Virus record (IMG/VR): IMGVR_UViG_3300038492_000407
Coordinates: 1 to 25,424 of that record
Direction: 5' to 3' (one strand)
DNA from: a virus
Taxonomy: Duplodnaviria; Caudoviricetes
Length of the DNA: 25,424 bases
Below the pieces are notes generated by a model, which made no database searches, had not been told where the DNA came from, and saw nothing but the letters and a program-made list of their open reading frames with translations. The translations under genes and the position numbers were made by a program. Below, piece by piece: positions 722-22,801 of the stretch. Numbering within the stretch: the first letter of the stretch is position 1; every line of letters begins with the position of its first letter.

Positions 722-1150
722 CTACGACACAGCTAGAAAGCGAAGCACGTCTTCGATTGAGACGCATATCCTTGTTGCCATCTTGGCCATCAACTCGGGC
801 TCTTCGCCATCGCGAGTCAGGATCACGGTGCGCTTGCCAGCGCCGCACATCCAGCCCAATTCGAGGTGGGCACTGCGCCCGCAGGGAAGTACGAGCACGC
901 ACGTGTCAGCCCACTGCATTGCCCCCATATCGGCCGCGAAGCCTTCTTCGGCCCGATGGGTGCGGAGCGCGGCGAGGTATTGGTCCGCGGTCCAGTTCTG
1001 CCAGTTGGCGTCGATCTCTTCCCAGCCGAAGCCCGCACCATTGGGCGGGTTCCGGAAGTCGTAGCACTCGTGGCCAGCCTTACGTAATCGCTGGATCACT
1101 TCTGGCTGGTAGTCGTTACGCCACGACGAGGCGACATAAATTCTAGCCAC
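722..1150 (-). CDS. Nucleoside 2-deoxyribosyltransferase-like (NDT/TIR-like fold) phage protein
   Basis: IYVASSWRN start; DMGAMQWADTCVLVLPCGRSAHLELGWMCGAGK resembles the NDT D...aD.vv...ElG.a...gK pattern. Confidence 0.6.
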   Translation of the reverse strand: MARIYVASSWRNDYQPEVIQRLRKAGHECYDFRNPPNGAGFGWEEIDANWQNWTADQYLAALRTHRAEEGFAADMGAMQWADTCVLVLPCGRSAHLELGWMCGAGKRTVILTRDGEEPELMAKMATRICVSIEDVLRFLAVS

Positions 1151-5189: not shown

Positions 5190-5350
5190 TGTTTGTTTGG
5201 GCATACGTCGTGATCTGGCGGCAATGCAAAGACACGATTGATGTTGGTCAGGCGGTAGCGCCGTTGTTCTATTTCGCGTGCATGGACATCTGCGCACTGG
5301 CTTGCATTGCCGCCGGTCTGGCTGGATTGGGTGGGGGGAAGATCTTGTGA
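5189..5350 (+). CDS. Small hydrophobic protein
   Basis: TGATG coupling upstream and GTGA coupling downstream. Confidence 0.45.
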   Translation: MFVWAYVVIWRQCKDTIDVGQAVAPLFYFACMDICALACIAAGLAGLGGGKIL

Positions 5351-6021
5351 GCTGGTATTTCGACCCTCTGACGATGTTCGGCTATGACCTGATCATGATC
5401 GACTGCGCGTGGGAGATTGAGCTTTATTCCGACAAAGGGCTCGGCAAGGCACCACAGGCGCACTACGAGTGCATGCCGATCGAGGAAATCAAGGCGATGC
5501 CAGTTGGCCATCTCGCCTCGCCTGACTGCTTGCTGTGGTGCTGGTGTACGGCTCCGATGGTCGATCAAGCTCTCGAAGCTGTCGCCGGCTGGGGCTTCAA
5601 ATATTCGACCATGGGAACTTGGGTGAAGACGACGAAAAACCGGAAGCTTTGCTTTGGCACTGGTTACCGTCTGCGTTCGTGTGCGGAGTTCTACATCATC
5701 GCGACCGTAGGTCGTCCCAAGACGACCAAGGGAACGCGCAATGCAATCCTCGGTCTACGTCGCGAGCATTCGCGCAAGCCGGAACTCGCATATCAGCACT
5801 GCGAACAGCTGATGCCCGGCGCGCGGAAAGTGGACGTGTTCTCGCGCGAGAAGCGCAAGGGCTGGGACAACTGGGGTAAAGAGAGGTTCAAATTCAATGT
5901 CGATTCGACTGAGCCTATCAGACCGCTTGATATCGATACTACCATTCTGGATCTCAAACGATCTATCGAATTGGATATGCGCGATCTATTTCGCTTGGAC
6001 GAATTACAAGAAGGTAATTGA
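5347..6021 (+). CDS. MT-A70 family (N6-adenine) methyltransferase with variant motif DCAW
   Basis: YDLIMIDCAW, HYECM, LWCWCT, WGFKY, WVK, GTGYRLRSCAE, REHSRKPE, DVFSR and GWDNWG. Confidence 0.88.
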   Translation: MSWYFDPLTMFGYDLIMIDCAWEIELYSDKGLGKAPQAHYECMPIEEIKAMPVGHLASPDCLLWCWCTAPMVDQALEAVAGWGFKYSTMGTWVKTTKNRKLCFGTGYRLRSCAEFYIIATVGRPKTTKGTRNAILGLRREHSRKPELAYQHCEQLMPGARKVDVFSREKRKGWDNWGKERFKFNVDSTEPIRPLDIDTTILDLKRSIELDMRDLFRLDELQEGN

Positions 6022-6297: not shown

Positions 6298-6432
6298 ATG
6301 CGGATTGTCATGATAGCGTTTGTGGCTGTCGCAATGACGGCATGCGGTGCGGGATCGCCGGGTTACTTCTGCGGCGGGCCAACGTGCCACCAAGCGGAAA
6401 CCAGCGTGCACGGACCCTATGCGAGTCCTTGA
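6298..6432 (+). CDS. Small putative lipoprotein, 44 aa (MRIVMIAFVAVAMTA-CGAG...)
   Basis: Read manually; GGAG RBS, signal peptide with lipobox-like MTAC, two further Cys. Confidence 0.5.
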   Translation: MRIVMIAFVAVAMTACGAGSPGYFCGGPTCHQAETSVHGPYASP

Positions 6433-7123
6433 TCTGTTCTCAGGAATTGGCGGTTTCACACTTGGCTTAGAGAGAGCTGGGATGGAAACCGTCGCATTCT
6501 GTGAGAGCGAACCATTTTGCCAAGATGTTTTGCGAAAGAACTGGCCCTATGTTCCGATCTATTGCGATGTCTGCACGCTCACGGCCGACACTCTTCGACG
6601 AGACGGAATTGCCGTTGATGTTATCGCCGGCGGGTTTCCGTGTCAGGACATCAGTATTGCTGGCGAGCAGGCTGGTCTCCAGGGTGAAAGATCTGGCCTC
6701 TGGTCGGAGTTCAGGAGACTTATTCGGGAGATGCAGCCGCAGTGGGTTATTATCGAAAACGTTACAGGAATTCTTAGTGAAGGCGGAACCGTCGTCGTTA
6801 ATGACATTGCCACGAGCGGGTATGATTGTCTCTGGGAATGCATACCAGCGTCTGCCATTGGCGCACTCCACAGACGGGACCGCTGGTGGTGTATTGCCCA
6901 CCGTAACGGCGTCGGACTTCAAGCGCGGAAGTCAAGCCAGTCGCGTGAACTCGAAAACTGGAATTCCCCTACCGCAGGCGATTGGTGGACCACCGAACCC
7001 AACGTGGCTCGAGTGGTTCATGGGATTCCCAATAGGGCACACCGAATTAAAGCCCTCGGCAATGCCGTTGTGCCGCAGATCACGGAAATGATTGGGCGCG
7101 CAATCATGGAAGCAGCTAAATAA
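6419..7123 (+). CDS. DNA cytosine-C5 methyltransferase, main polypeptide (motifs I-VIII and X)
   Basis: VLDLFSGIGG (I), GGFPCQDIS (IV), IENV (VI), HRRDRWW (VIII), KALGNAVVP (X). Confidence 0.92.
   Translation: MRVLDLFSGIGGFTLGLERAGMETVAFCESEPFCQDVLRKNWPYVPIYCDVCTLTADTLRRDGIAVDVIAGGFPCQDISIAGEQAGLQGERSGLWSEFRRLIREMQPQWVIIENVTGILSEGGTVVVNDIATSGYDCLWECIPASAIGALHRRDRWWCIAHRNGVGLQARKSSQSRELENWNSPTAGDWWTTEPNVARVVHGIPNRAHRIKALGNAVVPQITEMIGRAIMEAAK
6549..7091 (+). CDS. Overprinted alternative-frame ORF carrying a TRD-like segment and motif IX of the C5-MTase (start uncertain: 6501/6549/6567/6618)
   Basis: Open frame of about 590 nt inside the MTase; LPTVTASD and NPTWLEWFMGFPIGHT at 6996-7043. Confidence 0.65.
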   Translation: MFRSIAMSARSRPTLFDETELPLMLSPAGFRVRTSVLLASRLVSRVKDLASGRSSGDLFGRCSRSGLLSKTLQEFLVKAEPSSLMTLPRAGMIVSGNAYQRLPLAHSTDGTAGGVLPTVTASDFKRGSQASRVNSKTGIPLPQAIGGPPNPTWLEWFMGFPIGHTELKPSAMPLCRRSRK

Positions 7124-7626
7124 TGCACTGGTTCATCTTCGAGTGCCGCAATGGTCACGAGCACAAGGCCGAAAACGAGCTTCGATCCTGTGGTCTTCAA
7201 ACCTTGTTGCCCATTGGCAAGGCTTATCGACAGCGCAAGCGAGCCGGTAAGTCGTCGGCGCTCGTGACCTATCCTCTGTGGGGTGGCTACATCATGGGCG
7301 GCGGCAAGCAAGTGCCGTGGCCTGCCTTGCGCTCGCGGTTCGAAAACGAGCACTGCGCGCTGTTTGGCGTCCTTTGCCTGAACAAGGACAATGAGCCAAG
7401 CCCGATCGGCCCTCGTCTTCTCGATGAGATCCGCAATAGATCGTGGCTGGCCGACCAATCTCCGTTCGACATTGGGGACGAAATCAAAGTGACCGAGGGT
7501 CCATTCGTCGGACGACTCGGTAAACTCGTAGATATCGACGACAGCCAGGCGGAAATCGTTTTGGACATGCTCGGCAAGAGCGTGAGGGCGACTTTTCATC
7601 CGGCGCATTTGGAGAAAGTGGCGTGA
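7123..7626 (+). CDS. NusG/RfaH-family transcription antitermination factor
   Basis: NGN domain (WFIFECRNGHEHKA...PLWGGYI) and KOW motif (IGDEIKVTEGPFVGRLG). Confidence 0.88.
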   Translation: MHWFIFECRNGHEHKAENELRSCGLQTLLPIGKAYRQRKRAGKSSALVTYPLWGGYIMGGGKQVPWPALRSRFENEHCALFGVLCLNKDNEPSPIGPRLLDEIRNRSWLADQSPFDIGDEIKVTEGPFVGRLGKLVDIDDSQAEIVLDMLGKSVRATFHPAHLEKVA

Positions 7627-10035: not shown

Positions 10036-10695
10036 ATGCGCAAGCTACTCACGATAGCGGCGCTCCTCGCGGTCTTCGCGTCGGCGCCAATCCATGCTGC
10101 TGATCTCGGCGGAAAGGCTGTCGCTCAACAGCCAGCAGAGCCGCGAGCGGTATCGCGCACCGGCTGCTATTTTGGCGTCCATGCTGGCGTCGTATCGCAA
10201 TCGGTCGACATCGAGGCAGGTGGCGCGAACATCTTCACTCTTGGACTGGATGGGACGTTCATCGGCGGTCAAGCGGGCTGTGACGCTCAGGCAGGCCGTA
10301 TCGTTGGCGGCCTCTATGGCGAGTATAATTTCTTCCAGGCGGAAGGTGAGAACGCGTTTCTCGCGATCAACGACATCGAGCTTGATAGCAAGTGGTCGCT
10401 CGGCTTGCGTCTCGGCTTCCTGCTCAACCAGCACACGCTGTTGTACGGCAAGGCAGCATTCACGAAAGCGAAGGGCGACAACAACGATCTGACAGGTTGG
10501 GATTTCGGCGGCGGTCTCGAGCTTGACTTGACGAGAGCGCTATCACTTCAGCTGGACTACACCGGCACGAAGTGGAACGATGACGATAACGCGTTCGGTC
10601 TCACGGGTGTGACGGCAGAGTCGCTAGCGCATGCTGGGCGGATCGGACTTATCTACAGGTTCGGCGCCAACAATGGAATTAACTGGTGGAACTAG
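10036..10695 (+). CDS. Outer-membrane beta-barrel protein, Omp25/RopB-like
   Basis: Signal peptide then AADL; TGCYFGVHAG, GGQAGCD, RLGF...LLYGKA, GWDFGGGLE and RIGLIYRF strands. Confidence 0.88.
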   Translation: MRKLLTIAALLAVFASAPIHAADLGGKAVAQQPAEPRAVSRTGCYFGVHAGVVSQSVDIEAGGANIFTLGLDGTFIGGQAGCDAQAGRIVGGLYGEYNFFQAEGENAFLAINDIELDSKWSLGLRLGFLLNQHTLLYGKAAFTKAKGDNNDLTGWDFGGGLELDLTRALSLQLDYTGTKWNDDDNAFGLTGVTAESLAHAGRIGLIYRFGANNGINWWN

Positions 10696-17092: not shown

Positions 17093-17329
17093 ATGGCAGG
17101 CAAGAAAACACTCGATTATGACAGGATCGAAAAGCTCTGGAAGCAAGGACTCGATCGCAAAACCATTGCGCTCAGATTGGACTGCAGCCCTGCATCAATC
17201 ACGCGCGTACTCCAAGCGCGCGGATATGAAGGTGACTGGCGCAATAACGTGGCTGGCGTTGAAGTTGGCGTCCCGTCAGAATTGCACCACAGACAGCCGA
17301 GAGCCGAAGACGTAGAAAGCCTGATCTGA
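17093..17329 (+). CDS. Small HTH protein
   Basis: IEKLWKQGLDRKTIALRLDCSPASITRVL. Confidence 0.7.
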   Translation: MAGKKTLDYDRIEKLWKQGLDRKTIALRLDCSPASITRVLQARGYEGDWRNNVAGVEVGVPSELHHRQPRAEDVESLI

Positions 17330-17535
17330 TGGCGATCAACATGACAAATCGCAATATGGAGCTCGAGGAGCACCGTTTGGAGCTCGGCCGCGAGCTCTAT
17401 GTGCGATATTTGGAAGACCGGATCCGGGAATTAGAATCGAAAGGATCCTTGTTTTGCGCTCGAGCCCGCCTAGTTTCGGGAATTCAGATCGCGCTCGGGG
17501 AAGCCTACGAGCAAGGGAAGCACAGCAATGACTGA
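17329..17535 (+). CDS. Hypothetical protein, paralog of 17623-17886
   Basis: RLELGRELYVRYLED...ARARLVSGIQIAL..AYEQG. Confidence 0.7.
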   Translation: MAINMTNRNMELEEHRLELGRELYVRYLEDRIRELESKGSLFCARARLVSGIQIALGEAYEQGKHSND

Positions 17536-17617
17536 CGGCATTGGGCTGGTTGTAGCGTTTCACGTCTGCTGGATAGTGGCCTGTGGGTTCGCTCTTGGCT
17601 GGCTCGTTTTTGGGTAG
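17528..17617 (+). CDS. 29-aa hydrophobic peptide
   Basis: Read manually: MTDGIGLVVAFHVCWIVACGFALGWLVFG; fills the gap between the paralogs. Confidence 0.4.
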   Translation: MTDGIGLVVAFHVCWIVACGFALGWLVFG

Positions 17618-17622
17618 GTGCA

Positions 17623-17886
17623 ATGACAGTAACGAACAAGCCGCGTGACTTAGGCCAAGGTGGCGATCGTCTTGATATGGGGCAAGCTCTCTACAGGCGA
17701 TATCTCGAAGATCTTATTCAGGACGACGAACGGAATCTGCACGGTATGGCCAAGGCTCGGCTCATTTCCGGCATGCAGGTGGCCATGGAGATAGCCTATC
17801 AGCAGGGTTTCGACCATGGCTGCAAAGCTCGGAGCTTGGACGATCGACGCGGGGAGAAGTACGAGAGGACAGTTTCTAATGAGTGA
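17623..17886 (+). CDS. Hypothetical protein, paralog of 17329-17535
   Basis: RLDMGQALYRRYLED...AKARLISGMQVAM..AYQQG. Confidence 0.7.
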   Translation: MTVTNKPRDLGQGGDRLDMGQALYRRYLEDLIQDDERNLHGMAKARLISGMQVAMEIAYQQGFDHGCKARSLDDRRGEKYERTVSNE

Positions 17887-22062: not shown

Positions 22063-22308
22063 ATGGGATTCGGCGGCGGCAGTCGAACGCCCCTTCCTGA
22101 ACCGGAGCCGGTCACGCCAGTTCCACAGGAAGAGGGCTCGAACAAGATCGAAGCGCAGAGACGTGCTCGCCTGGCTGCTGCCGATCGCGAGGGCTTCTCC
22201 GAGCATCGTAAATCCGGTCAAGGACGTGGCACTCGGTCTGAACCAAACAGGCAGGGTGCCACGGGCTCGACCATCCAGGGCAAACGCACAGCGAGGATGA
22301 TGTACTAA
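22063..22308 (+). CDS. Small pre-portal virion-type protein, paralog 1 (MGFG...ARMMY)
   Basis: Termini shared with the next two ORFs; position before the head-tail connector. Confidence 0.75.
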   Translation: MGFGGGSRTPLPEPEPVTPVPQEEGSNKIEAQRRARLAAADREGFSEHRKSGQGRGTRSEPNRQGATGSTIQGKRTARMMY

Positions 22309-22568
22309 TGGGATTCGGTAAGAAATCTTCGCAGCCACAGCCGGCTGCCCCAGTCGACAACACGCCGCAAGTCACCAGCAACCAAGTCGAGCAAGGCGAG
22401 GATGCTGGCCGGCCCGGTACTCGGCGTGTGGCCCGCTTCCGCTCGATCGAGCGCGATAGGGACGCATCCTTGAATGATCCTGGCTCGGAAACGGGCGGGG
22501 ATGATCCTATGGGCGGAAGCCGACGACCGAGGGCGAGCGGGCGAAAGTCCGCTGCGATGTTGTACTGA
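22308..22568 (+). CDS. Small pre-portal virion-type protein, paralog 2 (MGFG...AAMLY)
   Basis: TAATG coupling; shared termini. Confidence 0.75.
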   Translation: MGFGKKSSQPQPAAPVDNTPQVTSNQVEQGEDAGRPGTRRVARFRSIERDRDASLNDPGSETGGDDPMGGSRRPRASGRKSAAMLY

Positions 22569-22801
22569 TGGGGTTCGGAAGCAAATCGTCGTCGACTCCG
22601 AAGAAAGATCCGGAGCCGACGTTCAAGCAGGTTGAGACCACGAACGACCCTCAACAGCGTAGAACTCTTGGTGTTAGGCGTGCTGAACGCTTCCAAACAC
22701 GAGACCAACCAGCGGCTCATATGCTTGAGGGGGATGAGAGCGGCTACGGCTCGCCGGCTCCTCCAGGCACAGCGACCCGCAAAGCTCGCATGATGTACTA
22801 A
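22568..22801 (+). CDS. Small pre-portal virion-type protein, paralog 3 (MGFG...ARMMY)
   Basis: TGATG coupling; shared termini. Confidence 0.75.
   Translation: MGFGSKSSSTPKKDPEPTFKQVETTNDPQQRRTLGVRRAERFQTRDQPAAHMLEGDESGYGSPAPPGTATRKARMMY

Follow-up and report, generated by a model that had tools for sequence, protein, structure and literature searches.

A phage C5 DNA methyltransferase gene that encloses a second, selected reading frame carrying motif IX: a probable two-chain enzyme

The window, a stretch of 25,424 nt that comprises positions 1 to 25,424 of the IMG/VR record IMGVR_UViG_3300038492_000407, is a tailed-phage fragment with Pfam matches to YqaJ, ERF, and HTH proteins, a terminase small subunit, and a head-tail connector. 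Its plus strand contains an open reading frame of 705 bases (6419 to 7123), here termed alpha, for a predicted C5 methyltransferase catalytic chain of 234 amino acids with motifs I to VIII, a linker, and motif X. A gene for an MT-A70-family (adenine-type) methyltransferase (5278 to 6021, PF05063) is located about 400 bases 5′ of alpha, and the ATG of a NusG/KOW antiterminator-like gene (7123 to 7626, Pfam and PHROGs) overlaps the alpha stop codon. Neither neighbour was found in the 1.5- to 2.5-kb flanks of the other loci fetched in this study.

In the alpha translation, motif I reads LFSGIGG (FxGxG; 6434 to 6454), motif IV reads GGFPCQD and includes the catalytic cysteine (6629 to 6649), motifs VI (ENV, from 6755) to VIII (HRRDR, from 6869) occupy 6755 to 6883, and motif X (RIKALGNAVVP, from 7043) and the C-terminal helix occupy 7043 to 7123. 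The initial annotation had described a main frame with motifs I, IV, VI, VIII, and X and without motif IX; our reading of 6419 to 7123 agrees with it and places motif IX in the +1 frame. A Pfam search matched PF00145 to alpha residues 1 to 173 only (E 6.7e-46), and a PHROGs search matched phrog_363. An AlphaFold (AF2) model from 42 sequences (pLDDT 84.4), with a confident core and confident last helices, shows a Rossmann-like fold and superposes on the large domain of M.HhaI (172 columns, rmsd 1.8, TM 0.66 by query), whereas the small domain of M.HhaI and M.HaeIII, which are both single chains, is missing from the model. Most of the linker (residues 166 to 210, 6914 to 7048) has a pLDDT below 50. 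The entire interval from motif VIII to motif X spans only 62 codons, is poorly conserved, and is modelled with a pLDDT of ~50. Fold and motifs predict that alpha is the catalytic chain of a C5 DNA methyltransferase of the PF00145 family, with neither a target recognition domain (TRD) nor motif IX of its own.

The +1 frame is open from stop to stop over 206 codons (6471 to 7091, plus strand), wholly inside alpha and slightly longer than the second frame first described, which had been given a start at 6501. We term it beta. Its coding sequence is likely to begin at the ATG at 6549 (180 amino acids) or at 6567 (174 amino acids), and a third candidate ATG is present at 6618. The starts of the closest gene-called homologues (P0001, 83% identical, and P0002 to P0005) fall in the 6549/6567 zone. 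Motif I is located 5′ of these starts and served as a single-coding control stretch; motif IV and the segment from VI to VIII are dual coded, the latter with the conserved middle of beta. Shine-Dalgarno pairing at the candidate starts of the window is poor (-1.5, +0.3, and -3.5 kcal; -3.2 kcal for alpha itself). Among the 113 loci described below, a suitable beta ATG was present in 82, and the best Shine-Dalgarno site had a median of -4.9 kcal compared to -3.5 kcal in controls, a best-of-several figure. Beta would be translated from such an internal start.

The initial annotation had recognised TRD-like "PT" and motif IX signatures in the second frame, and both were found: LPTVTASD (6894 to 6917) and, at 6990 to 7043, PPNPTWLEWFMGFPIGHT. 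The motif IX segment, NPTWLEWFMGFPIGHT, is encoded by the same bases as EPNVARVVHGIP of alpha. Its family consensus is LNPxWxEWLMGFP without the usual RE..R start, and its match to solved enzymes is weak. In one relative (L090), in which the motif is carried by alpha, it aligned to residues 270 to 321 of M.HhaI with 5 bits, weakly but colinearly; comparison with the plant DRM motif gave a weak E of 0.47. Window beta had no Pfam or NCBIfam match, so that the proposed PF00145 search succeeded for alpha (residues 1 to 173) and failed for beta. A methylase match was likewise absent from 47 of 47 beta sequences, and the beta profile, when compared to the sequences in the PDB, returned nothing significant (best E 0.26, unrelated). 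Window beta did match phrog_1008, "DNA methyltransferase" (E 2.7e-12, PHROGs). Motif IX was present in all of the 150 top beta-profile matches, and catalytic motifs were present in none.

Alpha queries identified 186 viral and at least 593 genome relatives, of which the 80 best of each kind were fetched, and removal of entries with more than 85% core identity and of rows without a recognisable motif VIII left 113 non-redundant loci, including the window. Using a null model that holds the amino acids of alpha constant, we counted two +1 stops in the region PC+30 to VIII+30, which takes in motifs VI to VIII and the linker after them, compared to an expectation of 265 with own and of 310 with flanking codon use. 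Between PC and motif VIII there were 16 stops compared to 279 to 327 expected, whereas upstream of the beta start, in motifs I to III, stops occurred at the expected rate (247 to 262 compared to 210 to 229). The core overlap had no +1 stop in 112 of the 113 loci, whereas the +2 frame was open there in 2. Relatedness among the loci and their ranking by likeness to window alpha restrict these counts to this subfamily; they do not stand for all C5 methylases. In the window alone, codons 50 to 222 contain no +1 stop compared to 5.1 expected with alpha residues held constant and codon use taken from 20 other ORFs of the window (P=0.002). Of 80 genome loci outside the build set of a beta HMM, all 80 reached 30 bits or more in the +1 frame and one did so in the +2 frame. 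Third-base agreement at four-fold sites of alpha, relative to expectation, was 0.98 to 1.31 for codons 1 to 60 and 1.19 to 1.86 for codons 61 to 160. About 100 codons of the catalytic core are dual coded. Third-base agreement thus rises from about alpha codon 60 onward. The first refuting condition of the initial annotation, stops in the second frame of homologues, did not hold for 112 of the 113 loci. These results confirm that a second ORF in another frame is nested inside alpha, is real, and is under selection.

The same data bear on the idea that compensating indels, from assembly error or in a pseudogene, put the TRD and motif IX out of frame and that alpha coding leaves the +1 frame open as a shadow. 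Much of the middle of beta can indeed be read as a shadow of the alpha motifs, and GC-rich genes yield long +1 runs (the longest in 14 other window genes were 44 to 144 codons). However, the null model with fixed alpha amino acids still predicts hundreds of stops, and the nested layout recurs over many phyla and in cultured phages. Contigs from two runs, which are possibly the window's own source and in that case not independent of it, cover 2.5 kb with no differences and no gaps at a depth of ~70, and the indels named in the initial annotation as a refuting observation were not seen. We regard an artefact or decay as already largely refuted and give it hardly any credence.

The distribution of the motifs over the two frames was compared across the 113 loci. 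Motif IX is on beta and motif X on alpha in 98 of them. In four (L013, L090, L130, L140) motif IX is on alpha and beta is still open; in another four (L078, L102, L148, L153) motif X is on beta, which still overlaps alpha from motif IV; two (L134, L138) are EcoHK31I-like, and five are truncated or unclear in architecture. The places at which coding passes from one frame to the other thus vary among the loci, but the dual-coded core is retained. A distance of 14 codons from motif IX to the GN of motif X is seen in the window and for 53 of 92 loci, compared to 21 residues in M.HhaI and L090. With so short a spacing, motif IX has bases in common with the beginning of motif X: the conserved G-W-T of beta and the start of the motif X helix of alpha are encoded by the same nucleotides. 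In L164 (2219 to 3358), L073, and L074, 100 to 140 additional alpha codons separate the beta stop from motif X, and the segment preceding motif X appears to be duplicated.

In principle, one chain could be made from such a locus by two programmed frameshifts, with alpha providing motifs I to VIII, a +1 shift leading into the TRD and motif IX, and a -1 shift leading back into motif X. Such a chain would restore the canonical motif order, and the lack of a good Shine-Dalgarno site at the beta starts of the window would agree with it. However, the +1 frame is cleared of stops ~90 codons 5′ of any useful shift; alpha would not need to be open between the shifts, yet it is open in 98 of the 113 loci; none of the 11 loci without a contiguous motif X has this motif in the alpha frame past a stop; and the IX-X spacing with its shared bases differs from that of single chains. 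We consider the double frameshift very improbable. The simultaneous openness of both frames and the nucleotides shared by motifs IX and X argue against frameshifting and assembly error alike, and we hold it to be highly probable that two separately translated chains make up one enzyme.

Ahead of motif IX, the beta chains of the relatives carry zero to six units of the type [WL]PTPxAxD, and the span of this region rises with the number of units from ~47 to 221 codons. LPTVTASD is the only unit of the window, whose gene is among the shortest seen. Alpha stays open over the 30 to 221 codons of the beta units, with no stop observed in 92 loci compared to 308 expected, a result that is partly due to classification. 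The alpha linker would be a passenger that becomes longer each time beta gains a unit. A PWM of the beta unit scored 15 to 21 on beta and 3 to 12 on alpha-borne TRDs, with no clear match to the latter and no confirmation of a TRD role. The variable region of C5 methyltransferases mediates target recognition, as stated in an excerpt of PMC3404938. From its position, the PTxTAxD unit is a putative TRD element and may act as the TRD of the enzyme.

Beta could also be real and selected but merely accessory, with alpha alone acting as a relaxed-specificity methylase that beta tunes, localises, or inhibits. Such a role would fit three relatives (L013, L090, L130) in which motif IX is on alpha and beta nevertheless persists, so that beta would have a function beyond motif IX, and the enrichment of a QxxLF peptide described below, which hints at localisation by beta. 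The alpha tail of the window, moreover, holds WNSPTAGD, which resembles a beta unit. We considered this string as a TRD retained on alpha and rejected it as a likely shadow: of 98 loci, 54 have a unit-like string on beta and one has it on alpha. Window alpha has just 62 codons from motif VIII to motif X, modelled at a pLDDT of ~50, and the alpha chain of M.EcoHK31I on its own gave no protection according to an excerpt of PMC2836561. An accessory beta is in our view very improbable.

M.EcoHK31I is an E. coli enzyme that recognises YGGCCR and is listed together with M.EaeI as an alpha/beta C5 methyltransferase. In excerpts of PMC2836561 and PMC3404938, its beta chain is described as encoded inside alpha, alpha bearing motifs I to VIII, motif X, and the TRD, and beta bearing motif IX; alpha alone is inactive and is rescued by beta in trans (PMC2836561). 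The window gene resembles M.EcoHK31I and M.EaeI in that beta is wholly within alpha in another frame, with motifs I to VIII and X on alpha and motif IX on beta, and in the orthologous loci L134 and L138 beta likewise occupies the +1 frame. The beta of L134 shares 59% identity with the beta chain of EcoHK31I and 60% with that of EaeI. The beta profile of the window family aligned with M.EcoHK31I beta over 61 columns (probability 90.5, E 1.3e-6), a stretch that is partly dictated by the alpha motifs, and within beta RAGMIVSGNAY (6813 to 6845) aligns with NSGMAFRGEY; pairwise BLAST of the two beta chains was not significant (E 0.38). By analogy with M.EcoHK31I, alpha and beta would bind each other.

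The window differs from M.EcoHK31I in several respects. The predicted TRD of M.EcoHK31I is on alpha, whereas window alpha has no room for it and the PTxTAxD units are on beta. In addition, window beta begins ~50 codons farther upstream, and no restriction enzyme was recognised next to the gene, which is situated in the replication-to-late part of a phage. EcoHK31I-like cores formed a separate branch with three other loci (SH-aLRT 98) in a quick tree without an outgroup; this tree was midpoint-drawn, with unlabelled rows counted as window-type, and is no guide to the order of events. The nested EcoHK31I-type design that had been proposed for the window holds with respect to the +1 frame and the homology of beta but not with respect to orthology or the location of the putative TRD. 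Judged from sequence and by analogy, the window enzyme would work like M.EcoHK31I as a homologue rather than an orthologue, in another and far larger phage/prophage subfamily. Peptide matches resembling EcoHK31I beta (H47 to H51, H41 to H46) were also noted under "Dam family" genes of ~96-kb E. coli/Pantoea plasmids and, on megaplasmids of Bifidobacterium, under dcm genes.

Two further systems were compared. M.AquI is a two-polypeptide C5 methyltransferase in which the distal variable region and motif IX belong to the small subunit according to an excerpt of PMC3404938; motif IX is likewise on the smaller chain in the window, but the AquI subunit also has motif X, which in the window is on alpha. 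The ShiLan case (PMC11855218) concerns an HNH insertion that lies out of frame in methylases of actinophages. According to excerpts of that paper it is a hidden other-frame ORF in a phage methylase gene whose own frame is still open, as in the window, but it is a sporadic homing endonuclease insertion, and no subunit is mentioned there. Excerpts of PMC3925955, PMC5537653, and PMC6536676 describe relaxed-specificity prophage m5C enzymes of ~700 amino acids, and a second chain is mentioned neither there nor in excerpts of PMC9957025. No description of a phage two-frame family was found in a full-text literature search, the coverage of which leaves out most subscription papers. A nested design with both chains made and needed is shown only for EcoHK31I, an E. 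coli enzyme, in the excerpted text of PMC2836561.

The family is large. The beta profile matches 48,523 representative proteins, an estimated 7000 stretches of the genome collection fit the alpha patterns, and alpha matches 1521 phage records, 189 of them over 80% of its length. The three intact GenBank phage genes that we inspected (Hades gp69, Ssp-JY42, Harrison_72) have an open +1 frame that is unannotated; Hades is a mycobacteriophage that can be cultured in M. smegmatis. The expectation that annotation pipelines miss beta was therefore correct for these three genes, but gene callers emitted tens of thousands of beta-like proteins. In cultured DNA, no close relative of the window was found, only seven short matches. 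In the same samples (runs X1 to X3), the motif IX stretch at window positions 6995 to 7062 has a diverged counterpart on a second contig with comparable depth (67 and 53), which represents another family member. In mycobacteriophage Llama (genes 74/75; L184, 2001 to 2760), alpha slips into the +1 frame soon after motif VI, and several cluster F phages match alpha in two pieces, possibly as a common broken allele.

At the start of beta, QxxL[FWY] occurred in 42 of the 113 loci compared to 4.1 expected, 29 times in one register and 13 times in others. The window has RPTLF (6582 to 6596), a degenerate version of this clamp-motif-like peptide without Gln, where its close homologues read QATLF, QPTLW, or TPTLF; QLTLF also occurs in relatives. 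Clients of the sliding clamp carry a QL[S/D]LF pentapeptide according to an excerpt of PMC9690074. Because any conserved beta motif would exceed the QxxLF null expectation, clamp binding by beta is a lead only.

Because the gene sits between the MT-A70 and NusG-like genes without a restriction enzyme, anti-restriction self-methylation is its likely purpose, and the enzyme would be an orphan phage methylase that protects newly copied phage DNA from host restriction. More broadly, and tentatively, the nested layout may be both old and standard in a very large phage/prophage methylase family of which M.EcoHK31I is a side branch; beta would be a modular specificity subunit that gains and loses PTxTAxD units (zero to six) while the catalytic chain is undisturbed, and its QxxLF start would attach the enzyme to the sliding clamp of the host, with methylation of phage DNA in step with its copying, in analogy to DNMT1 on PCNA. 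We consider this wider scenario less likely than not. A layout treated as a rare exception in the literature excerpts at hand seems to be the norm across a large phage/prophage family, and phage methylases annotated as "short" would each be half of an enzyme. Recoding a nested gene for expression would likely kill the enzyme, and specificity would have to be read from the hidden frame. Naturally split methylases serve as scaffolds for targeted methylation, as stated in an excerpt of PMC2836561. The 705-base, one-unit member of the window offers a simple test case.

Word counts over the window showed a clear depletion of CTAG and GANTC and no usable cytosine signal; given the specificity of CcrM, the depletion of GANTC suggests an alphaproteobacterial host. 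Elsewhere in the window, a nucleoside 2-deoxyribosyltransferase-like gene with a weak Pfam match (722 to 1150, minus strand) adjoins the ERF/YqaJ recombination pair, and a phage-borne outer-membrane beta-barrel protein (PF13505) is encoded at 10036 to 10695. Two adjacent small ORFs (17329 to 17886) have the common pattern LY.RYLED.I...AR L.SG.Q.A...AY.QG and are likely a tandem duplication. Three successive small ORFs with MGFG starts and RMMY or AMLY ends precede the head-tail connector (22063 to 22801) and are probably paralogues.
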